NCBI RefSeq assembly: GCF_002854065.1 | Contig: NZ_CP024147.1 | From: Escherichia coli | GTDB taxonomy: Bacteria > Pseudomonadota > Gammaproteobacteria > Enterobacterales > Enterobacteriaceae | Reading direction: 5' to 3' (one strand) | Length of the DNA stretch: 64,000 nt | Shown: piece after piece, positions 3,162-19,813 of the stretch | Position numbering within the stretch: position 1 is the first letter of the stretch | Layout of the letters: each line of letters begins with the position of its first letter | The notes under the pieces: model-generated | Seen by the model: only the letters and a program-made list of their open reading frames with translations | Database searches by the model: none | Told to the model about the DNA's origin: nothing | Position numbers and translations under genes: made by a program

Positions 3162-3670
3162 GCACTATCACAAGAGAATGGCTGCAGCAGGCTATCAACG
3201 ATTATGAAAGCGTTCGTGATGAGCTTCCTTTCGGGCTTGATGATTACCAGGGGAATATCCTGGCTGCCCTGCGTATCGCACTGGCATCGCTGGAAGCAGA
3301 GCCGGTGGCGTGGAAGGTAACATTCACGCAAATTGACCGTGAATATAACACGTTCACTGGTATGTATTCTGACAAAGCAGAAGTCGAACGGTGGGTGCGG
3401 CTGCATAAAGCATGTAATTTTCGGGCAGATATAACACCGCTTTATACCGCCAAGCCAGTGCCGGTAACTCCGGATGGTTGGATAAGCTGTAGTGAGCGAA
3501 TGCCAGAGGACGGTCAGCACGTAATTATTTTATGTGATGGCGCATTCGTTCTTTATGCGCAATATCGAGACGGAGAGTTTTTCGATATTGTCCGCAATGG
3601 TGATGAATTTTTCGAAACACAGAGTCGCAATGTAACCGACTGGATGCAACTACCAGAACCTCCCCTTTGA
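3158..3670 (+). CDS. DUF551-domain phage protein
   Basis: C-terminal W-x-SCSERMPEDG ... TDWMQLPEPP motif typical of DUF551. Confidence 0.55.
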   Translation: MSTITREWLQQAINDYESVRDELPFGLDDYQGNILAALRIALASLEAEPVAWKVTFTQIDREYNTFTGMYSDKAEVERWVRLHKACNFRADITPLYTAKPVPVTPDGWISCSERMPEDGQHVIILCDGAFVLYAQYRDGEFFDIVRNGDEFFETQSRNVTDWMQLPEPPL

Positions 3671-3766
3671 TAGCTAAGCTTATACATATCTTTTACATCA
3701 GCAATCTATTGTTAATCTCCAATCAATGTTACGTTGTCATCTCTCTCATGCTTTGGAGGTAGTGAT

Positions 3767-3958
3767 ATGTCTTGTCCAAAATGCGGTTCTGGAAATATTG
3801 CAAAAGAAAAAACAATGCGTGGATGGTCTGATGATTATGTGTGCTGCGATTGCGGATACAACGACTCTAAAGACGCATTTGGAGAGCGTGGTAAAAACGA
3901 GTTTGTCAAAATTAATAAAGAACGCGAAGGCGGTGATGCTGCCAACTTACTGATTTAG
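3767..3958 (+). CDS. Small zinc-ribbon protein (CxxC...CxxC); native last 4 codons displaced by IS1
   Basis: GGAGG RBS, MSCPKCGSGN...CCDCG; reading frame runs into IS1 at 3932; native C-terminus ...EREG-NEKS* reconstructable across the insertion. Confidence 0.5.
   Translation: MSCPKCGSGNIAKEKTMRGWSDDYVCCDCGYNDSKDAFGERGKNEFVKINKEREGGDAANLLI
3923..3931. repeat. 9-bp target site duplication (CGCGAAGGC), left copy
   Basis: Identical 9-mer directly abuts both ends of the IS1 at 3932-4699. Confidence 0.9.
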
Positions 3959-3986
3959 TGTATGATGGTGTTTTTGAGGTGCTCCA

Positions 3987-4262
3987 GTGGCTTCTGTTTC
4001 TATCAGCTGTCCCTCCTGTTCAGCTACTGACGGGGTGGTGCGTAACGGCAAAAGCACTGCCGGACATCAGCGCTATCTCTGCTCTCACTGCCGTAAAACA
4101 TGGCAACTGCAGTTCACTTACACCGCTTCTCAACCCGGTACGCACCAGAAAATCATTGATATGGCCATGAATGGCGTTGGATGCCGGGCAACCGCCCGCA
4201 TTATGGGCGTTGGCCTCAACACGATTTTCCGCCATTTAAAAAACTCAGGCCGCAGTCGGTAA
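3987..4262 (+). CDS. insA: IS1 InsA
   Basis: 91 aa [18 protein letters not shown]... Confidence 0.9.
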
Positions 4263-4684
4263 CCTCGCGCATACAGCCGGGCAGTGACGTCATCGTCTGC
4301 GCGGAAATGGACGAACAGTGGGGATACGTCGGGGCTAAATCGCGCCAGCGCTGGCTGTTTTACGCGTATGACAGGCTCCGGAAGACGGTTGTTGCGCACG
4401 TATTCGGTGAACGCACTATGGCGACGCTGGGGCGTCTTATGAGCCTGCTGTCACCCTTTGACGTGGTGATATGGATGACGGATGGCTGGCCGCTGTATGA
4501 ATCCCGCCTGAAGGGAAAGCTGCACGTAATCAGCAAGCGATATACGCAGCGAATTGAGCGGCATAACCTGAATCTGAGGCAGCACTTGGCACGGCTGGGA
4601 CGGAAGTCGCTGTCGTTCTCAAAATCGGTGGAGCTGCATGACAAAGTCATCGGGCATTATCTGAACATAAAACACTATCAATAA
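4181..4684 (+). CDS. insB: IS1 InsB frame (made as InsAB' by -1 frameshift)
   Basis: 167-aa ORF overlapping insA in -1 frame; A6C slippery motif intact. Confidence 0.85.
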
Positions 4685-4699
4685 GTTGGAGTCATTACC

Positions 4700-4708
4700 C
4701 GCGAAGGC
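4700..4708. repeat. 9-bp target site duplication (CGCGAAGGC), right copy
   Basis: Matches 3923-3931. Confidence 0.9.
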
Positions 4709-4786
4709 AACGAAAAAAGCTAATTTATTTATTCATATATGAAAACAATGTAATAAATATTCGAATTGAAGAATTGAAAGAACACC

Positions 4787-4810
4787 AAGCCGCCTGATGG
4801 CGGTTTTTTA
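4787..4810 (+). terminator. Rho-independent terminator-like hairpin
   Basis: GCCGCC-TGAT-GGCGGT stem-loop followed by TTTTTT. Confidence 0.5.
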
Positions 4811-4823
4811 TTGGAGACAAGAA

Positions 4824-5168
4824 ATGTCAGATTTGGCTATGAAGGTTTTGAAATGGCAATCGACTGGCGATGTCGGCATCAGTAGCGCAACTCTTGCCTC
4901 AATCGCATGTGGCCTGAAAAAGAATATCTATGGTCATCACTTCGGCGCTCCCCATGACGCAGCAGACTTTCGGCGATGCGTTGCACTTGTTGAGCAGATT
5001 CCAGAAATCAGAGATTCATTCGACAAGGTTGCAAAGCGCGTTCCGGCATTCAAAGGAATCCTCAACGAATGGGATTCACTCGTTGCTCTGTTGAAGTCTG
5101 AAATGAAGACGTACGGGAACAAAGCACCAGAGACTTACAGAAGAATCAGCGAGCTACGCAAGGACTAA
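4824..5168 (+). CDS. Hypothetical protein (114 aa), prophage cargo
   Basis: ATG at 4824 with GGAGA RBS directly after the terminator; no recognisable motif. Confidence 0.45.
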   Translation: MSDLAMKVLKWQSTGDVGISSATLASIACGLKKNIYGHHFGAPHDAADFRRCVALVEQIPEIRDSFDKVAKRVPAFKGILNEWDSLVALLKSEMKTYGNKAPETYRRISELRKD

Positions 5169-5245
5169 CGCCTCACACTCGATGAGGCCTGTACATATCT
5201 GATAGATCCGCTATATGGCGGTTTATTTTTGCCTGGAGAATTAAG

Positions 5246-5437
5246 ATGACCGATACCAGCCTGATTCCTGAGAAAGAAGTGATGAACAAGCTCGGTGTTT
5301 CATCACGTCAGACAATCTGGAACTATACCAAACGGCACGGATTTCCGAAGCCAGTCAGAACCCACCCCAAATCATACCTTCGTGAAGCTGTTGAAGGGTG
5401 GATTCTTAACGGTGGCGTTAATCAGAAATGCTCCTGA
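5246..5437 (+). CDS. alpA: AlpA-family phage transcriptional regulator / excisionase-like
   Basis: 63-aa HTH protein resembling AlpA (MTDTSLIPEKEVMNKLGVSSRQTIWNYTKRHGFPKP...); adjacent to integrase. Confidence 0.7.
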   Translation: MTDTSLIPEKEVMNKLGVSSRQTIWNYTKRHGFPKPVRTHPKSYLREAVEGWILNGGVNQKCS

Positions 5438-6596
5438 TGTGCCAGAACAATTTATCAGCGTGAAGCTCATACGCTTTGCGCTGAGCCTCTATCCAGTCGT
5501 GTTTATTGTATACGGACATTATCCCGCCAAGTTCATGACCGAGCATTCGCTCAGTAACATGAGGCTCGACATTCATCTCGGACAGACGTGTAACAAGCGT
5601 TCTTCTGAAATCGTGTGTTCGCCAGTAACCTAGATCCATCCCTCCCCTTATTCTATTTACGAATCGGTTGGCTGCAGCGATGCTGATCGGTTTGTTTATG
5701 TCTTCTCCAGGGAAAAGAACATCATTGTACGTTGTCATGGCCTTTTCGAGGAAAGGCTTAATTTGTTCGAAGATTGGACGGCGGATAACATTACCCATCT
5801 TGCTATGCTCTTTCGGTACGGTCCATACGTTTTCCAGCAGGTCAAATTCTGTCTTTTTTGCCAGCCTAAGCTCTGAGAGCCTCGCCCCCCACAGCATAAG
5901 CATCTGATGAAGTAGCTTATTTGACGTAGACGCACGGCTTCTTTCAATAGCAAGCCAAATCTTAGCCAGTTCGTGATACGACAGTACCCGATCCCCTACC
6001 TCAGCGCGGGAGCCGAAGTCCCTTGGTTGGATGCTCATAATTGCGCAACTATCTATCAACTGACGCCGCATGCACCAACTTATTGCTGATCTTAGTTGAC
6101 TTAGCACCTGCCTTGCTCGGCGTGGATTATCTCTTTCTTCTTCGGTAAGCAGGTCAACCCATTGCTTAACCGTGATAGAAGATGCCGGACGATTAGGAAA
6201 GGCGTCATGCATGCGCTTCATAACCGTTGATCGGTAAAGTGCCTGGGTCTTTTCTCTGAGAGTTGTAGAGACGTAGTTGTCGAACCAGTAGTCGAGACAC
6301 TGGGCGACCGTCATGGAGTTCTCCACCTTCTCTTCAAAATAAGTGCGTGGATCCGTTCCTGAGAAATAGAGCTTTCGCAAGTCAGCAGTGATCTGTCTGG
6401 CATCCTTCAAAGACAGGGATGGGTATCGACCAAGCCCAAGTCGATTAGGCTTGCCATGCCAGCGATAGCGGTACTGGAACTGGATGACCCCCTTCGGTGA
6501 AATTCGTACGCTGAGGCCATCGGCATCAGCCACTTCTTGTGGGCCCGAATATGGTTTACCATAAATACTACGCAGTTTTGTGTCGCTTATAGCCAT
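5418..6596 (-). CDS. int: Tyrosine-type site-specific integrase (P4/CP4-57-like)
   Basis: 392 aa; C-terminal catalytic region with R...HDFRRT...LGH...Y motifs. Confidence 0.9.
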   Translation of the reverse strand: MAISDTKLRSIYGKPYSGPQEVADADGLSVRISPKGVIQFQYRYRWHGKPNRLGLGRYPSLSLKDARQITADLRKLYFSGTDPRTYFEEKVENSMTVAQCLDYWFDNYVSTTLREKTQALYRSTVMKRMHDAFPNRPASSITVKQWVDLLTEEERDNPRRARQVLSQLRSAISWCMRRQLIDSCAIMSIQPRDFGSRAEVGDRVLSYHELAKIWLAIERSRASTSNKLLHQMLMLWGARLSELRLAKKTEFDLLENVWTVPKEHSKMGNVIRRPIFEQIKPFLEKAMTTYNDVLFPGEDINKPISIAAANRFVNRIRGGMDLGYWRTHDFRRTLVTRLSEMNVEPHVTERMLGHELGGIMSVYNKHDWIEAQRKAYELHADKLFWHIRSISD

Positions 6597-6777
6597 AAAT
6601 AATATTTGGTACGCTCAGAAATAATGGTTTGGTACACATCTGGTACACAATATCACATGGACAACAGCGCACAGTAAACAACTATATTTGACGTTCGTAG
6701 ACATACTCAGGTGAAAAAATGGTTGTTTTTCGAGTTATAACAGACAGTTAATTAACTACAGTGGACAATGCTAGACA

Positions 6778-8202
6778 ATGACAGACGCAGATAAACAACC
6801 TACCTTCCTCTTTCACGATTACGAAACCTTTGGCACGCACCCCGCGTTAGATCGCCCTGCACAGTTCGCAGCCATTCGCACCGATAGCGAATTCAATGTC
6901 ATCGGAGAACCCGAAGTCTTTTACTGCAAGCCCGCTGATGACTATTTACCCCAGCCAGGAGCAGTATTAATTACCGGTATTACCCCGCAGGAAGCACGGG
7001 CGAAAGGAGAAAACGAAGCCGCGTTTGCCGCCCGTATTCACTTGCTTTTTACCGTACCGAAGACCTGTATTCTGGGCTACAACAATGTGCGTTTCGACGA
7101 CGAAGTCACACGCAACATTTTTTATCGTAATTTCTACGATCCTTACGCCTGGAGCTGGCAAAACCGCAATTCGCGCTGGGATCTGCTTGACGTGATGCGC
7201 GCCTGCTATGCCCTGCGCCCGGACGGCATCAACTGGCCGGAAAACGACGACGGTCTGCCGAGCTTCCGCCTGGAACATCTCACCAAGGCCAACGGTATTG
7301 AACACAGTAACGCCCATGATGCGATGGCCGACGTTTACGCGACCATCGCCATGGCGAAGCTGGTGAAGGCCCAACAGCCAAAGCTGTTTGATTATCTGTA
7401 TGCCTACCGGGGCAAAAACAAGCTGATGACGCTGATTGACGTCCCGCAGATGAAGCCACTGGTGCATGTCTCGGGAATGTTTGGCGCCTGGCGCGGAAAC
7501 ACCAGCTGGATTGCGCCGCTGGCCTGGCATCCGGATAACCGTAATGCGGTGATCATGGTCGACCTGGCGGGCGACATCGCCCCGCTGCTCGAGCTGGATG
7601 CCGATACGCTGCGCGAGCGCCTGTATACGCCGAAGGCCGAGCTCGGCGACAGTTCGCCGGTGCCGATTAAGCTGGTGCATCTGAATAAGTGCCCGGTGCT
7701 GGCGCAGGCCAATACCCTGCGCCCAGAAGACGCTGACCGTTTAGGCATTAACCGACAGCACTGCCTGGATAACCTGAAACTGCTGCGCGATAACCCGCAG
7801 GTGCGCGAGAAGGTGGTGGCGATTTTTGCTGAAGCCGAGCCGTTTGTCGCATCGGACAACGTCGACGCCCAGCTTTATAACGGTTTCTTTAGCGACGCCG
7901 ACCGCGCGGCGATGAAAATCGTGCTGGAGACCGAGCCGCGCAATCTGCCGGCGCTGGACATTACCTTCGCCGACCCGCGTATTGAGAAGCTGCTGTTTAA
8001 CTTCCGCGCGCGCAACTTCCCCGGCACGCTGGATGAAAACGAGCAACAGCGCTGGCTGGAACACCGTCGGCAGATCTTCACCCCGGAATTTTTACAGGCC
8101 TACGCCCAGCAACTGGAGATGTTGTACGGTCAGTATGAGGGGAATAACGAGAAGCTATCGCTGCTGAAGGCGCTGTATCAGTACGTGCAGGAGATTGTTT
8201 AA
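6778..8202 (+). CDS. sbcB: Exodeoxyribonuclease I
   Basis: 474 aa, near-colinear with E. coli SbcB (FLFHDYETFGTHPALDRPAQFAAIRTD...). Confidence 0.95.
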   Translation: MTDADKQPTFLFHDYETFGTHPALDRPAQFAAIRTDSEFNVIGEPEVFYCKPADDYLPQPGAVLITGITPQEARAKGENEAAFAARIHLLFTVPKTCILGYNNVRFDDEVTRNIFYRNFYDPYAWSWQNRNSRWDLLDVMRACYALRPDGINWPENDDGLPSFRLEHLTKANGIEHSNAHDAMADVYATIAMAKLVKAQQPKLFDYLYAYRGKNKLMTLIDVPQMKPLVHVSGMFGAWRGNTSWIAPLAWHPDNRNAVIMVDLAGDIAPLLELDADTLRERLYTPKAELGDSSPVPIKLVHLNKCPVLAQANTLRPEDADRLGINRQHCLDNLKLLRDNPQVREKVVAIFAEAEPFVASDNVDAQLYNGFFSDADRAAMKIVLETEPRNLPALDITFADPRIEKLLFNFRARNFPGTLDENEQQRWLEHRRQIFTPEFLQAYAQQLEMLYGQYEGNNEKLSLLKALYQYVQEIV

Positions 8203-8211
8203 TTCAACGCA

Positions 8212-8240
8212 GCGACGCCGGAAAATCTTCCCGGCGTCGC
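8212..8240. terminator. GC-rich hairpin between convergent sbcB and yeeD (putative bidirectional terminator)
   Basis: GCGACGCCGG-AAAATCTTC-CCGGCGTCGC perfect 10-bp stem; weak flanking U-tracts. Confidence 0.4.
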
Positions 8241-8255
8241 TTGATGCCTGGGGCA

Positions 8256-8480
8256 TTATTTCTGTACGGTGATGGTCCACGCCGCATCGCCAGACTGCTG
8301 ATAGTCCGTGACCGTAAAGCCCTCTTCCGCCGCCCACTGCGGGATGGCTTCCGTCGCCTGAGTACAGTCGAACTCAATCACCAGCTGGTCGCCGCTGGCC
8401 AGTTCCGCCATCGCCGCCTTCGCTTCAATTAACGGGAACGGGCAAACCTGCGTGACTACGTCCAGTTTCTTCACAACCAT
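8256..8480 (-). CDS. yeeD: TusA-like sulfur carrier protein YeeD
   Basis: 74 aa with CPFP motif; conserved position downstream of yeeE. Confidence 0.85.
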   Translation of the reverse strand: MVVKKLDVVTQVCPFPLIEAKAAMAELASGDQLVIEFDCTQATEAIPQWAAEEGFTVTDYQQSGDAAWTITVQK

Positions 8481-8525
8481 TTTTTCTACTCCTTAAGCCG
8501 TTGCGGTTTTCAGTTTTGCTTTCCG

Positions 8526-9505
8526 CTACGGGCGAACATACAACATCCACGACGCGCACCACACGCCGAGAATCATAAATACCAGGCCAATCCAGCCCTG
8601 CCAGGTCATCATCGCCGTCATCACCAAACCGTTGCCGATCGAGCAGCCGCCGGCAATGCTGGCACCGAAGCCCATCAGTACGCCGCCACCCGCGCTACGC
8701 AGCGTGGTGCTGGCATCGGCAGCGCGGACGCGGAATTCACGGCTGGCTTTCGCGGCAATAAACGAACCGATAAAGATTCCCAGCACCAGGAAGACGCCCC
8801 AGTTGAGGTACTTGCTGTCACCCCCCACCAGGAACTGCAGGATATTGGCGGTCGGCGAGGTAATGCCAAGGCCAAACATACGTCCGGTGGCCTCACTCAG
8901 CGGCCAGGCCAGCAGGGCGATAAGGCCAATCAGCACGGCGGTCACAAACGGATGCCAACGCTTTTCAAACAGCAGATGCGCCAGGCCAGTGCGGCGCGGC
9001 GGCAGAGAAGCTACTTTGAGCTTTGGTTTGCTCAGCTCTTTGCGAACAAACCACAGGGTCACCGCCACCAGCAGAACGATAAGTGGCCAGACGGAGATAT
9101 TCAGGGTTTCGGCAATGCCGTTGTGAGTGGTCGTGTGTTGACCGAGGAATTTGTTAAGCCCAGCCGCGTGCGGTGAACGCATGATCGCGCTCATCACCAT
9201 ATAGGTGACCAGTGCAATCCAGCTGCCAATCAGCCCTTCCCCGGCACGATACCAGGTGCCGGTGGCGCAGCCTCCCGCATAAACGATACCGATACCAAAA
9301 ACAAATCCACCCACCACGGTGCCAAGCCACGGGAACGCGCCTGCATCGTACTGCACCAGGCCAAGCTGGATCAGGGCGAACACGCCGATACTCTGGATAC
9401 AGATAGCAATCAACAGTGCGTAAAACATGCGGTTATTTTTGGTGATATACATATCGCGAAAGCCACCCGTCAGGCAGAAACGACCGCGCTGCATAACGAA
9501 TCCCA
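8526..9505 (-). pseudogene. yeeE: yeeE (tsuA) thiosulfate transporter, 3' portion from codon ~18 onward, separated from its 5' end by IS1
   Basis: Homology to YeeE begins at ...GFVMQRGRFCLTGGFRDMY; codons upstream of 9505 run directly into the IS1 end at 9506. Confidence 0.85.
9497..9505. repeat. 9-bp target site duplication (CGAATCCCA), left copy
   Basis: Identical 9-mer at 10274-10282 abutting the other IS1 end. Confidence 0.9.
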
Positions 9506-9560
9506 GGTGATGCTGCCAACTTACTGATTTAGTGTATGATGGTGTTTTTGAGGTGCTCCA

Positions 9561-9836
9561 GTGGCTTCTGTTTCTATCAGCTGTCCCTCCTGTTCAGCTA
9601 CTGACGGGGTGGTGCGTAACGGCAAAAGCACCGCCGGACATCAGCGCTATCTCTGCTCTCACTGCCGTAAAACATGGCAACTGCAGTTCACTTACACCGC
9701 TTCTCAACCCGGTACGCACCAGAAAATCATTGATATGGCCATGAATGGCGTTGGATGCCGGGCAACTGCCCGCATTATGGGCGTTGGCCTCAACACGATT
9801 TTACGTCACTTAAAAAACTCAGGCCGCAGTCGGTAA
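9561..9836 (+). CDS. insA: IS1 InsA
   Basis: 91 aa. Confidence 0.9.
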
Positions 9837-10258
9837 CCTCGCGCATACAGCCGGGCAGTGACGTCATCGTCTGCGCGGAAATGGACGAACAGTGGGGCTA
9901 TGTCGGGGCTAAATCGCGCCAGCGCTGGCTGTTTTACGCGTATGACAGTCTCCGGAAGACGGTTGTTGCGCACGTATTCGGTGAACGCACTATGGCGACG
10001 CTGGGGCGTCTTATGAGCCTGCTGTCACCCTTTGACGTGGTGATATGGATGACGGATGGCTGGCCGCTGTATGAATCCCGCCTGAAGGGAAAGCTGCACG
10101 TAATCAGCAAGCGATATACGCAGCGAATTGAGCGGCATAACCTGAATCTGAGGCAGCACCTGGCACGGCTGGGACGGAAGTCGCTGTCGTTCTCAAAATC
10201 GGTGGAGCTGCATGACAAAGTCATCGGGCATTATCTGAACATAAAACACTATCAATAA
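9755..10258 (+). CDS. insB: IS1 InsB frame
   Basis: 167 aa; A6C motif intact. Confidence 0.85.
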
Positions 10259-10273
10259 GTTGGAGTCATTACC

Positions 10274-10325: not shown

Positions 10326-10460
10326 AAGAATCAATTAACTCAATATTATCAGTCTTAAAATTATTCCTGACCCCGCCGGACGGCTCCAATAACCAAAAGC
10401 TCTATATTATTCCCGACGGTTATTAATATTGATTTTTTAATCACCCCACAAACTTAAGAC

Positions 10461-10492
10461 AAAAAAAACCGGAGGCCCAGACCTCCGGTTTT
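10461..10492. terminator. Bidirectional rho-independent terminator downstream of plaP
   Basis: AAAAAAAA-CCGGAGGCCCAGACCTCCGG-TTTT. Confidence 0.6.
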
Positions 10493-10515
10493 GCAACCAT
10501 CGTTTTTAAATTCAG

Positions 10516-11874
10516 TTATGCAACATCTTCGTACTGCGGAACCGGGTTGCGGAAGCTTTTGGTCACACAGGCCAGGTAGATCAGACCGATACCGGCCCAG
10601 ATCAGGCCCAGAACCATAGAGCTCTCTTCCAGGTTCACCCACAGTGCGCCAACGGTCAGCGCGCCGCAGATTGGCAGGAACAGGTACTGGAAGTGATCTT
10701 TCAGCGTCTTATTACGCTTCTCACGGATCCAGAACTGAGAGATAACGGACAGGTTCACGAAGGTGAACGCCACCAGCGCACCGAAGTTAATCAGCGCCGT
10801 TGCCATCACCAGGTCGAAGTTAATCGCCAGCAGCGCAATCGCGCCAACCAGGATGATGTTCATCGCCGGGGTGCGCCAGGTTGGATGCACGTAGCCGAAG
10901 AAGCTTTTCGGGAACACGCCATCACGGCCCATCACGTACATCAGACGCGCCACACCCGCATGCGCCGCCATACCGGAAGCCAGCACGGTAATGGTGGAGA
11001 AGATCAGCGCGCCAACCTGGAAGGCTTTACCCGCCACGTACAGCATGATTTCAGGCTGTGAGGCGTCCGGATCTTTGAAGCGAGAGATATCCGGGAAGTA
11101 GAGCTGCAGGAAATAGGTGGAGAAGATAAAGATCAGGCCACCAATCAGCGCCGTCAGGAAGATAGCACGCGGAATCACACGCTCAGCGTCTTTGGTTTCT
11201 TCAGACAGGTTGCTGATACCGTCAAAACCGGTAAAGGAGAAGCACAGAATCGTGGCCCCGGTAATCATAGGGATCACGTGCGCATCACCCGACCAGAACG
11301 GACGGTTGCTTGCCAGCGTACCGGCACCTTCGCCGTGCGCCACGCCATAAATCACCATACCTAGGATCACGGCAATCAGTACCACCTGGAACACCACGAT
11401 CACGGTGTTAAAGTTGGCGACAGATTTGATGCTGCGCAGGTTAAAGGCGGTCATAAAGGCAACCAGTGCAATCACGAATACCCATGACGGTATCGACGGC
11501 ACCAGCGCTTCGAAATAGATTTTTGCCAGCAGAATGTTGATCATCGGCGCGAACAGATAATCGAGCAGCGAAGACCAACCCACCATAAAGCCAACGGTCG
11601 GGCTGATGGATTTCTGGGCATAAGTGTAGGCAGAGCCCGCCGAAGGATAACGGCGCACCAGCTTACCGTAGCTCAGCGCGGTGAACAGAATTGCCACCAG
11701 AGCGAAGGCATAAGCTGTTGGCACGTGACCATCGGTCATGCCAGATACGATACCGAACGTATCAAACAGCGTCATCGGCTGCATATAGGCCAGGCCCATC
11801 ATAACAACCGGAATAAGCGTAAGCGTTTTACGTAATTCCACGCGAGAGGTGTTTGGAGTAACGTTATGCGACAC
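10516..11874 (-). CDS. plaP: Putrescine importer PlaP (YeeF), APC-family permease
   Basis: 452 aa, near-colinear with E. coli PlaP ([20 protein letters not shown]...). Confidence 0.9.
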
Positions 11875-12221
11875 GGTCAGTCTCCATTACGGCGATGGCC
11901 GGCGCAAAATTGAAAAATTGCCCCATTTTTTTTCTGTTTCCTCAGCGACAACGACTGTCGTTTTTTAAGTAAGTATCTATCCGGTACGAAGCCCGGCCTC
12001 TTTAATTTGATGGTTGTTTTGATGTAAAAAAAATAACCGACGCGGCAAGCACGTCGGTTAATCTCAATTTTTTACATTCGACATATTTTGCCCCAAACGG
12101 TAGCAAAAAGACAAGCCGCTGAGAGCATAATCAGCACGCCTTCTCGTCTAAACGACTGATAATTCAGCAACTCCCGAATCATAAATCTCATCAATAGCAC
12201 TATTTGCTAAAACAGCGGCGA

Positions 12222-13043
12222 TTATTCCATCGGCATACGTAACGGGTCAGGATACTGATACTCAAAGCCGAGCTCGCGGCAAATGAGATTACCGTCGATG
12301 ATTTTGCCTTTTCCATTACCGCTGTCGCTAAAGCTCGGAACCGCTAACCCCAGCTCACGCGCCATTTGCGGATAGAAAATACCGCGAGCGGGATGCAACG
12401 GCGCACAAATGTTATAAATGTGTCCACCCTTCGGCGCCTGTAATAAAAGCGTAATAGCAGAGACAACATCTTCCAGATGGACGAGATTCACGCCGTGCTG
12501 ACCATCCGGCGCGGATTTACCTGCGAAGAAACGTCCCGGATGCCGATCCGGCCCCACCAGCCCCGCCAGACGCAGAATATCCACCGACGTCCCCGGCAAT
12601 TGATGAAGCCAGTCTTCCAGCTCTTTTAATACTCTGCCGCTAGCGGTAACCGGTTCACGCGGCGTGCTCTCTTTTACCAGCCCTTCTTCTTTACCGTAGA
12701 CCGAAGTGGAGCTGGTAAAGATAATGCGCGGAATCTGGTACGCCAGCGCGGTGTCCACAATCTCCTGCACCGCCTGATGATAGAAATCTTCGCCCGGACC
12801 GCTGCGGCGCGCGGGGAGCGTAATGACCAGCGCGTCAACATTCATTAAAGCATCAAGGTCATCAGCCTCACAGACCAGCTGCGGATCGAGCCGCAACGGA
12901 TAGCTATCAATCCCGCACATCCGTGCGGCTTCCACGCCATCCTCTGTCGTTTTACTGCCCGTTACCTGCCAGCCGCGCGCCATCAACGACAGCGCCAGCG
13001 GCATACCCAGCCACCCTAAACCGACAATTGCCACCTTCTTCAT
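12222..13043 (-). CDS. yeeZ: NAD-dependent epimerase/dehydratase family protein YeeZ
   Basis: Start chosen at MKKVAIVGLGWLG (AGGAGA RBS), matching the 274-aa E. coli YeeZ; the longer ORF 12222-13109 is rejected. Confidence 0.85.
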   Translation of the reverse strand: MKKVAIVGLGWLGMPLALSLMARGWQVTGSKTTEDGVEAARMCGIDSYPLRLDPQLVCEADDLDALMNVDALVITLPARRSGPGEDFYHQAVQEIVDTALAYQIPRIIFTSSTSVYGKEEGLVKESTPREPVTASGRVLKELEDWLHQLPGTSVDILRLAGLVGPDRHPGRFFAGKSAPDGQHGVNLVHLEDVVSAITLLLQAPKGGHIYNICAPLHPARGIFYPQMARELGLAVPSFSDSGNGKGKIIDGNLICRELGFEYQYPDPLRMPME

Positions 13044-13149
13044 TGCGCTATCTCCTGGTTCATCCTGCACTCCTCTCATAAGGCTACGCCACAGCGAGAA
13101 AACTGACAATTTATAGTGGTAACATGAATTGATTTAATGAATGAAAAAA

Positions 13150-13195
13150 GCGCTTGCGCTCAACGACAAAAGTGGTTTAGGTTAAAAGACATCAA
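13150..13195 (+). promoter_or_regulatory. his operon promoter region (approximate)
   Basis: Position relative to hisL and recalled similarity to the E. coli his promoter; -35/-10 hexamers not confidently placed. Confidence 0.35.
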
Positions 13196-13221
13196 GTGAA
13201 TAGTCATTCAACGAGAAATTT

Positions 13222-13272
13222 ATGAGCCGCGTTCAATTTAAACACCACCATCATCACCATCATCCTGACTAG
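13222..13272 (+). CDS. hisL: his operon leader peptide ([16 protein letters not shown])
   Basis: 16-codon ORF with seven consecutive His codons. Confidence 0.9.
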
Positions 13273-13333
13273 TCTTTCAGGCGATGTGTGCTGGGAGACA
13301 TTCAGATCTTCCAGTGGTGCATGAACGCAAGAG

Positions 13334-13370
13334 AGCCCCCGGAAGATCATCTTCCGGGGGCTTTTTTTTG
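13334..13370 (+). terminator. his attenuator terminator
   Basis: AGCCCCCGGAAGATCATCTTCCGGGGGCT hairpin followed by TTTTTTTT, between hisL and hisG. Confidence 0.9.
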
Positions 13371-13404
13371 AACCAAATTCAGCAGGGTAATGAGGAATAC
13401 AGAA

Positions 13405-14303
13405 TGTTAGATAACAGCCGTTTACGCATAGCTATTCAGAAATCAGGCCGCCTGAGCGATGATTCACGCGAATTACTGGCCCGTTGTGGTATCAAAATCA
13501 ATCTCCACACCCAGCGCCTGATCGCGATGGCGGAGAACATGCCGATCGATATCCTGCGCGTTCGCGATGACGATATTCCGGGGTTGATTATGGATGGCGT
13601 GGTCGATCTCGGCATTATCGGTGAAAACGTTCTGGAAGAAGAGCTGCTGAGCCGCCGCGCGCAAGGCGAAGACCCGCGCTACTTTACCCTGCGTCGTCTG
13701 GACTTCGGCGGCTGCCGTCTGTCGCTGGCGACCCCGGCGGATGAAGCCTGGAACGGCCCGGCTGCGCTCGACGGCAAACGTATTGCCACCTCTTACCCAC
13801 ACCTGCTCAAACGTTATCTCGACCAGAAAGGCATCAGCTTTAAATCCTGCCTGCTGAACGGCTCTGTTGAAGTGGCCCCGCGTGCCGGTCTGGCCGACGC
13901 CATCTGCGACCTGGTATCAACCGGCGCGACGCTGGAAGCCAACGGCCTGCGTGAAGTAGAAGTGATGTTCCGCTCTAAAGCCTGCCTGATTCAACGCGAC
14001 GGCGAGATGAGCGACACCAAGCAGCAGTTGATTGACCGTCTGTTAACCCGTATTCAGGGCGTGATTCAGGCGCGCGAATCGAAATACATCATGATGCACG
14101 CGCCAACCGAACGCCTGGAAGAAGTGATTGCCCTGCTGCCGGGTGCCGAGCGCCCAACCATTCTGCCGCTGGCGGGCGACCAGCAGCGCGTGGCGATGCA
14201 CATGGTCAGCAGCGAAACCCTGTTCTGGGAAACCATGGAAAAACTGAAGTCCCTGGGTGCCAGCTCGATTCTGGTACTGCCGATTGAGAAGATGATGGAG
14301 TAA
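13405..14303 (+). CDS. hisG: ATP phosphoribosyltransferase
   Basis: 299 aa starting [17 protein letters not shown]; the ORF-track 5' extension to 13284 spans the attenuator and is rejected. Confidence 0.95.
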
Positions 14304-14308
14304 GCGCC

Positions 14309-19813
<5,505 letters not shown>

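Follow-up and report, generated by a model that had tools for sequence, protein, structure and literature searches.

The window analysed here is a stretch of 64,000 nucleotides (nt) from an Escherichia coli contig (NZ_CP024147.1, assembly GCF_002854065.1) that carries a prophage at sbcB, and the gene in question, ORF114, lies near one end of this prophage at positions 4824..5168 on the + strand. Its product of 114 amino acids (aa; 12.7 kDa, isoelectric point (pI) 9.2) is predicted to be a compact seven-helix protein. The frame is open for 114 codons on the + strand, from ATG 4824 to TAA 5166-5168, and a GGAG ribosome-binding site (RBS; 4813..4816, +) lies 7 nt 5' of the start, in agreement with the initial annotation of this stretch, which had described a 114-aa open reading frame (ORF) with its own RBS. 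A mechanically compiled ORF list gives a longest frame of 123 aa starting at ATG 4797, a codon located within the leader hairpin; relatives whose hairpins differ in sequence lack this ATG or have it out of frame, so the conserved start is 4824, and an alignment of nine loci showed both GGAG and ATG 4824 to be invariant. ORF114 matches the profile phrog_1229 over its whole length (E = 1.8e-51; residues 1-114 align with profile positions 1-113 of 116). Among seven alleles, taken from phages and prophages of E. coli and Salmonella, pairwise ratios of nonsynonymous to synonymous substitution (dN/dS) range from 0.03 to 0.28. Given this end-to-end match and the low dN/dS, ORF114 is certainly a gene, and one under purifying selection. 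The G+C content of ORF114 is 47.8%, compared with 47.5% for the early phage genes and 48.3% for the integrase gene int.

It is all but certain that the gene is the uncharacterised lambdoid gene known as ORF114 in phage 434 and p30 in HK022 (phrog_1229) and that it belongs to the early-left operon. The window protein is 100% identical to the product of a gene of phage EC.P3; the copies of mEp043, mEp234 and the Shiga toxin (Stx) phages of the Stx1 and Stx2 types, including 1717, share 97-98% aa identity with it, and the HK022 copy, which we read directly, is ~97% identical and adjoins a lambda-type xis. The copy of Salmonella phage g341c is 94.7% identical and that of P22-like SPN9CC ~62%. In GenBank, the records of Stx2 phage 1717 and of g341c carry notes that identify the gene as 'HK022p30' and 'ORF114 (phage 434)'. 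A search with the ORF alone, at a coverage of at least 80%, found it in 914 of the 5426 complete E. coli genomes, single genomes having as many as 4 copies. The gene sequence is already known and extremely common, so it is not an orphan, contrary to what had been proposed. On a broader scale, a HMMER scan of 1.84 billion representative proteins returned 1918 clusters, defined at 50% identity, with E <= 1e-3, and 190 clusters with E <= 1e-10. Relatives occur in phages of Cronobacter, Citrobacter, Yersinia (PY54), Klebsiella, Mannheimia, Vibrio, Burkholderia, Clavibacter and Arthrobacter. In E. coli relatives ORF114 is annotated as 'hypothetical protein'; the name 'Eag protein', carried by the first E. 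coli matches, was rejected for ORF114, as this label belongs to the 59-aa gene upstream. Text searches of the literature found no function for any member of the family, and ORF114 does not appear in the supplementary files of two accessory-gene screens.

The gene is preceded by an intrinsic terminator (4787..4812, +) composed of an 8-bp G+C-rich stem, a tetraloop and a T-tract that ends just 5' of the RBS, the distance from the terminator tail to ATG 4824 being 13 nt. A consensus scan identified the hairpin and T-run at 4787-4806, which fold at -16.2 kcal/mol (z = -3.1); in total, the scan found 5 terminator-like sites in 900 bp, against 0.6 expected. The same arrangement, with the G+C-rich 8-bp stem, the tetraloop and the T-tract running into GGAG, was found in 9 of 9 loci. 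Three stem types (CCGCC/GGCGG, ACTCGC/GCGAGT and CCCGC/GCGGG) occupy the same place and each folds well individually: the structure of the leader hairpin is conserved, its sequence is not. Read on the sense strand, the hairpin is a textbook intrinsic terminator. In phage P22 an identical hairpin precedes eaC; its annotation there, 'aI terminator', assigns it to the antisense aI RNA, which suggests that the hairpin may act in both directions. In HK022 and mEp043, ORF114 is preceded by a 59-aa gene (the frame ending in NIRIEELKEHQAA and a stop); the non-coding segment 4750..4797 (+) of the window aligns with the 3' end of this gene and is a relic of it. Sigma-70-like promoter sites were found neither in positions 4600-5500 of the window nor in 1.7 kb (7100-8800) of an intact relative, no cII/C1-type site (TTGC-N6-TTGC) was found for ORF114, and Rfam gave no match within 3600-6900.

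On the 3' side, the 23 bases at 5170..5192 (+) represent a relic of codons 5-12 (SLTLDEAC) of a P22-type xis gene and form a hairpin without a T-run. This segment is invariant in 9 of 9 loci and is in-frame xis coding sequence (MESHSLTLDEAC) in g341c, SPN9CC, ENT47670 and P22 (9742-9700); in the P22-type arrangement, the xis ATG stands 2 nt after the ORF114 stop. It is followed by a terminator-like hairpin with a T-run (hairpin 5208-5221, whole element 5208..5231, +; consensus scan), which was found only in loci with the AlpA-like/int module of the window. Thus, of the two hairpins by which the gene had been said to be bracketed, the upstream one holds (4787-4806, with its T-run), whereas the downstream one, placed at ~5171-5233, separates into the xis relic and the distinct terminator-like element. 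ORF114 adjoins four types of excisionase, namely, lambda Xis in HK022, P22 Xis in ENT47670 and SPN9CC, an AlpA-like helix-turn-helix (HTH) protein in the window and a TorI-type protein in a DH5alpha prophage. Because the invariant 23-bp xis relic travels with ORF114, the cassette must have reached lambda-, AlpA- and TorI-type integration modules through recombination inside xis.

Comparison with P22 and with the E. coli strain CUWW06 points to a variable slot at this position. P22 and the window have the same leader, which begins at the eaG stop, includes the hairpin and the RBS and extends to ATG TCA G (10380-10500, minus strand, against 4709-4830). The right border of P22, TAA-AC-ATG of xis, is likewise identical; between the two borders lies the unrelated eaC gene. 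BLASTP found nothing better between ORF114 and EaC than a match of 10 residues with E = 0.13, and EaC is assigned to different PHROGs. In CUWW06, a DUF4222 gene fills the slot next to the same HTH/int module. ORF114, eaC and the DUF4222 gene are therefore alternative cassettes of one accessory slot, located at the distal end of the PL operon with eaG or the ea22-like genes on its 5' side and the excisionase gene on its 3' side. As expected of a dispensable gene of the 'ea'/exo-xis accessory class, ORF114 is replaced by unrelated genes in similar phages. The profiles of EaC, DUF4222 and DUF4031 are all of unknown function. Over 24 kb of the O-antigen and colanic-acid region, the CUWW06 sequence matches the window at 100% identity; at sbcB, this strain has a different prophage, which is intact. 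Between the repressor gene and kil, that prophage encodes a HipA-family kinase and a DUF3037 protein, a pair that may represent a prophage defence or toxin module; this pair and the DUF4222 slot are covered by positions 11589-13977 and 18022-18552 of the CUWW06 locus.

The genes upstream of ORF114 place it within the early-left operon. On the same strand lie the early genes erf (507-1214, +), ssb (1215-1721, +) and abc2 (1735-2031, +), the last 3 kb upstream of ORF114, followed by three early genes, ea22-like or unknown, and an eaG homologue. The 5' 55 codons of the latter (3767..3931, +) encode a CxxC...CxxC zinc-ribbon protein with 53 of 55 aa identical to P22 EaG; the intact homologue in E. 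coli relatives is 59 aa long and annotated 'Eag protein'. The gene is interrupted by IS1 (3932..4699, +), a simple insertion of 768 bp with its terminal repeat at 3932 and a 9-bp target duplication (cgcgaaggc) at 3923-3931 and 4700-4708. The insertion fell in the last eaG codons, changing the C-terminus from ...KESEGNEKS to ...KEREGGDAANLLI, and the displaced last codons with the stop TAA 4721-4723 are found at 4700..4723 (+), where they align with strain 2-1 (7000-7023) and P22; the site is uninterrupted in E. coli strains 2-1 and AZ146. An overlapping frame of eaG (3726-3953, +; fragment 3768-3931) matches phrog_2945 (E = 6.9e-13), a profile that seems to be built from ORFs called in this overlapping frame and may reflect an annotation artefact or an overlapping gene. 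In AZ146, the intact order is cI, N ... cIII, kil ... abc2, ea22-like, dATP/dGTP pyrophosphohydrolase, Eag, ORF114 and HTH genes, followed by int on the opposite strand and by sbcB, and the window order erf-ssb-abc2-...-eaG-ORF114-HTH, all on one strand, matches it. ORF114 is therefore not the stand-alone gene of the initial annotation: it belongs to a catalogued family, is the last gene but one of the PL early-left operon, lies to the operon side of xis/int and is parted from its upstream neighbour eaG by IS1 alone. Two further IS1 copies were observed in the window: one, truncated by the edge of the window, occupies 1-287 and borders on the early genes of the prophage at 288, and the other, at 9506-10273, appears to interrupt the 5' end of tsuA/yeeE, where the ORF at 8526-9494 encodes 322 aa versus 351-352 aa elsewhere.

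Downstream of ORF114, the gene at 5246..5437 (+) encodes the AlpA-like HTH protein of 63 aa, which matches phrog_66, 'excisionase and transcriptional regulator' (E = 1.9e-8); its Pfam Phage_AlpA score of 17.8 bits is under the cutoff of 21. By these profile matches, the protein is a probable excisionase or recombination directionality factor. The tyrosine integrase of 392 aa (5418..6596, -) has Arm-DNA-bind_3 and Phage_integrase domains. The position of ORF114 just upstream of the AlpA/integrase pair was correctly recognised, but the pair is not co-directional: the two genes converge, with a 3' overlap of 20 nt (5418-5437). The same convergent, overlapping HTH/int layout was also seen in Stx phage 1717 and in E. 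coli sbcB prophages, and a Burkholderia prophage has a convergent layout without overlap. The attachment site (att) follows directly after int in the window, whereas in P22-like phages the gtrABC lysogenic-conversion cargo lies beyond int. The 13-bp att core CGTAATCGTGAAA (6811..6823, -) is an exact match inside the 5' end of sbcB, and this core, as well as integration at sbcB, has been described for Sf101 and Stx2c phage 2851 (PMC4159516). The prophage junction falls within the 5' end of sbcB (6778-6823), such that the prophage supplies the first sbcB codons and the upstream region.

Temperate phages carry the family gene 0-2 genes from the excisionase or integrase gene. In a Burkholderia prophage, a family gene with 40% identity is followed by DUF4031 and HTH_17 genes and then by int on the opposite strand; another prophage is similarly organised, and in one other the gene lies 4 kb from int. 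Relatives were also found among the early genes of PY54, Vibrio phage D53 and Clavibacter phage CN1A, next to Lar-like, methyltransferase, exonuclease and HNH genes. PY54 is a non-integrating telomere phage, and no integrase annotation was found in PY54, CN1A or the 58.5 of 60.5 kb of D53 that were viewed. The protein is strongly conserved.

To characterise the protein, we aligned 125 relatives with 30-60% identity and used the alignment for an AlphaFold2 model. The model is very confident (predicted local distance difference test (pLDDT), 96.5; predicted template modelling score (pTM), 0.89) and comprises seven helices with one ordered loop at residues 29-45. Five residues, P43, D45, D48, C52 and W83, are invariant in all relatives (100%), and W11, G18, S20, S21, R51, L55 and P60 are conserved in at least 97%; the window protein carries all 12. 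In the predicted model, conserved polar residues stand at the N-termini of helices 2, 3 and 6. Searches for a domain or fold of known function were negative, as the initial annotation had anticipated when it recognised no domain: ORF114 has no match in Pfam, NCBIfam or, by sequence and profile searches, the PDB; among the 125 relatives Pfam gave a single chance coiled-coil match; no PADLOC-DB v2 defence model reached E <= 1; and a Foldseek search of the PDB with the model gave a best E of 2.3, that is, no similar solved structure. A fold search of BFVD retrieved PY54 ORF50, a Vibrio phage protein and a CN1A protein, all uncharacterised, plus a weak giant-virus match. In a profile search of 5.8 billion proteins, all matches were unnamed or 'hypothetical' and none had a Pfam domain. 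Neither a membrane segment nor another feature of exclusion proteins was found in ORF114. The isoelectric points of the family range from 4.5 to 9.8, a spread that speaks against a role as DNA mimic or as general nucleic-acid binder. Because neither a housekeeping homologue nor a lack of conservation was seen, ORF114 stays a valid 'unknown', and the earlier suggestion that it deserves homology-independent follow-up stands for what is a conserved family without any functional match, now with a confident model.

Some members of the family are longer. The extensions of 40 longer relatives fall into 30 unrelated groups, none matching Pfam. Six relatives (P0173, P0177, P0183, P0191, P0148 and P0152) have zinc-ribbon-like N-termini (CxxC...HxxC or CxxC...CxxC). 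A zinc-ribbon partner gene, a candidate raised by eaG and by these extensions, was rejected, as most of 16 loci have no such neighbour. A C-terminal domain of ~150 aa, without a Pfam match, recurs in the distant members P0086, P0087 and P0089, and P0080 contains a second, degenerate copy of the ORF114 domain. In rare chimeras (P0015, P0052, P0063, P0017, P0033 and P0034), parts of ORF114 are joined to dATP/dGTP pyrophosphohydrolase, Erf, Kil or Ea22-like sequences, with one junction located at a 'GIS' motif common to both parts. These chimeras are junctions seen on single contigs and look like products of mosaic recombination or of assembly and not like real domain fusions.

The position of the conserved terminator, abutting the RBS, together with the failure to detect a promoter, suggests that ORF114 and xis would be expressed jointly, from no other transcripts than antiterminated ones starting at PL, during infection or prophage induction and not in a resting lysogen. 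The lambda tL terminators provide an established analogy for an antitermination-gated distal operon segment. In light of this analogy, the terminator abutting the RBS and the absence of promoter-like sites, the distal ORF114-xis(-int) segment would depend on antitermination, and we consider it probable that expression of ORF114 is gated in this way and confined to the lytic phase. In the window, the gene resides in a prophage at sbcB that is riddled with IS1, and it is probably not expressed unless antiterminating transcription runs through the IS1 that parts it from its operon.

As to function, the leading proposal is that ORF114 would bind a host component during the lytic phase, as a non-essential accessory factor for host takeover or counter-defence. 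In favour of a lytic-phase role, the relatives in PY54, D53 and CN1A lie among early genes, and the variable accessory regions of phages have been reported to be enriched in anti-defence genes (bioRxiv 10.1101/2023.04.06.535777). The counter-defence guess is made because early-operon variable slots, in temperate and non-integrating phages, typically hold such genes; a host-directed or counter-defence function assigned by this analogy is a tentative proposal. The best explanation in full, combining the identity of the gene, its slot, gated expression and a host-directed function, falls in our estimate a little below an even balance. A more daring version, to which we give still less credence, is that the family represents a new widespread class of counter-defence or host-takeover proteins, in which a predicted Ser-Ser/Asp/Asp/Arg/Cys/Trp site would bind a host immune protein or a signalling molecule, with terminator-gated expression in lambdoid phages. 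Several observations weigh against the best explanation. The P22 annotation assigns the hairpin to an antisense RNA, so that its role as a sense-strand terminator is one that we infer; the promoter scan relied on a crude sigma-70 consensus, which a weak or activator-dependent promoter could escape; no homology ties ORF114 to a target; no match to known anti-defence or defence models was found; the pI spread of the family points to nothing positive; the conserved S20, S21, D45, D48, R51 and C52 could equally mark the active site of an enzyme; and a part played in excision or lysogeny could explain why the gene recurs next to xis/int in independent temperate lineages.

The first of the alternatives takes up the conserved residues. 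ORF114 could act on nucleotides or DNA metabolites, as a small enzyme or as a ligand-binding protein, for instance, a sponge or hydrolase for a signalling nucleotide or a helper of neighbouring nucleotide enzymes; its site would then consist of the invariant polar residues that the predicted model places at the N-terminal ends of helices 2, 3 and 6. The invariance of P43, D45, D48, C52 and W83 and the near-invariance (at least 98%) of S20, S21, R51 and G18 across the 125 sequences are what such a site would look like, although C52, in the middle of a helix, and the Asp and Ser residues, at helix caps, could all be structural. The neighbouring genes, often encoding dATP/dGTP pyrophosphohydrolase, exonuclease, methyltransferase, HNH or thymidylate kinase proteins, point in the same direction, as do two extensions, one in P0186 resembling a Pol-beta-type nucleotidyltransferase (a weak DNA_pol_B_palm match, E = 0.13) and one in P0176 resembling a MazG-like helix. 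However, the fusion partners are almost all singletons that lack Pfam support and may be gene-calling artefacts, and the E. coli PF04447 chimeras are mosaic junctions on single contigs. We regard this alternative as unlikely.

The second alternative ties ORF114 to site-specific recombination or to the lysogeny decision, as a co-factor or regulator made with Xis and Int. It draws on the location of the gene directly 5' of excisionase genes of four unrelated families, 0-2 genes from int in distant Burkholderia and other prophages, with the stop only 2 nt from the xis start in the P22-type arrangement and the conserved terminator just 5' of the ORF114-xis unit. Yet eaC and the DUF4222 gene fill the slot in phages with the same xis/int, implying that recombination proceeds independently of ORF114; relatives are present in phages without an annotated integrase; one prophage has the gene 4 kb from int; and the xis relic carried with the cassette shows that the adjacency is largely by descent. 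We consider this role quite unlikely.

The third alternative, and the reading raised by the initial annotation, in which ORF114 is a lysogen-expressed moron aiding the host, for example through superinfection exclusion or anti-phage defence, is improbable: the gene is small, non-essential, variably present, close to the end of the prophage, with terminator-like hairpins on either side, abundant among E. coli prophages (<=4 copies per genome) and intact although the prophage is riddled with IS1, but it has no detected promoter-like site and a terminator abutting its RBS, its G+C content equals that of its phage neighbours, no PADLOC model matches it, no membrane segment or typical exclusion-protein feature is present, its homologues occur in the early regions of apparently non-temperate phages, and it lies within the repressed PL operon and not between int and att, where morons such as gtrABC or oac are located. 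A downstream terminator, as expected of a moron, is provided by 5208-5221 and its T-run, yet this hairpin co-varies with the int module. A lysogen-expressed defence function is accordingly less likely than a host-directed factor of the lytic phase, and the probability that remains beyond the latter and the three alternatives belongs to something else.

For the window, these results describe an accessory ORF of lambdoid phages that is known and very common, left stranded in a prophage at sbcB that IS1 has damaged, and not a new defence island. The ORF114 family itself is a large and well-conserved portion of phage 'dark matter', without a Pfam entry or resemblance to solved structures, that spans phages of proteobacteria and actinobacteria. 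Its members in model phages (434, HK022, mEp, P22-like and Stx) are amenable to clean genetics, and the exact alternation of ORF114 and eaC between the terminator-RBS leader and the xis start amounts to a natural experiment on the roles of accessory cassettes.

Among known systems, morons, which are autonomous promoter-gene-terminator units, resemble ORF114 in being small, accessory and variably present, with a terminator-like hairpin on the 3' side, but ORF114 differs in having a terminator instead of a promoter on the 5' side, a non-deviant base composition and a location inside the PL operon. The anti-RecBCD protein Abc2, the Ral/Lar-type restriction alleviation proteins, Kil and CIII are encoded in the same transcription unit and are likewise small, dispensable early proteins, and Lar-like genes are found near family members in PY54 and Vibrio phage D53; ORF114 has no homology to any of them, the likeness being one of context only. 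In phage lambda, the positional counterpart next to xis is ea8.5. The eaC gene of P22, a non-essential delayed-early accessory gene, shares with ORF114 the identical slot, the leader up to ATG TCA G and a stop located 2 nt before the xis start, but differs in that an annotated C1-activated antisense promoter lies inside it, whereas ORF114 is without a cII/C1-type site. Finally, ORF114 of phage 434 and p30 of HK022 are the same gene, with the same terminator-RBS leader and the same place directly 5' of the excisionase gene; the window copy differs from these copies in its flanks alone, with eaG and IS1 on the 5' side and the AlpA-like/P4-type integrase module at sbcB on the 3' side.

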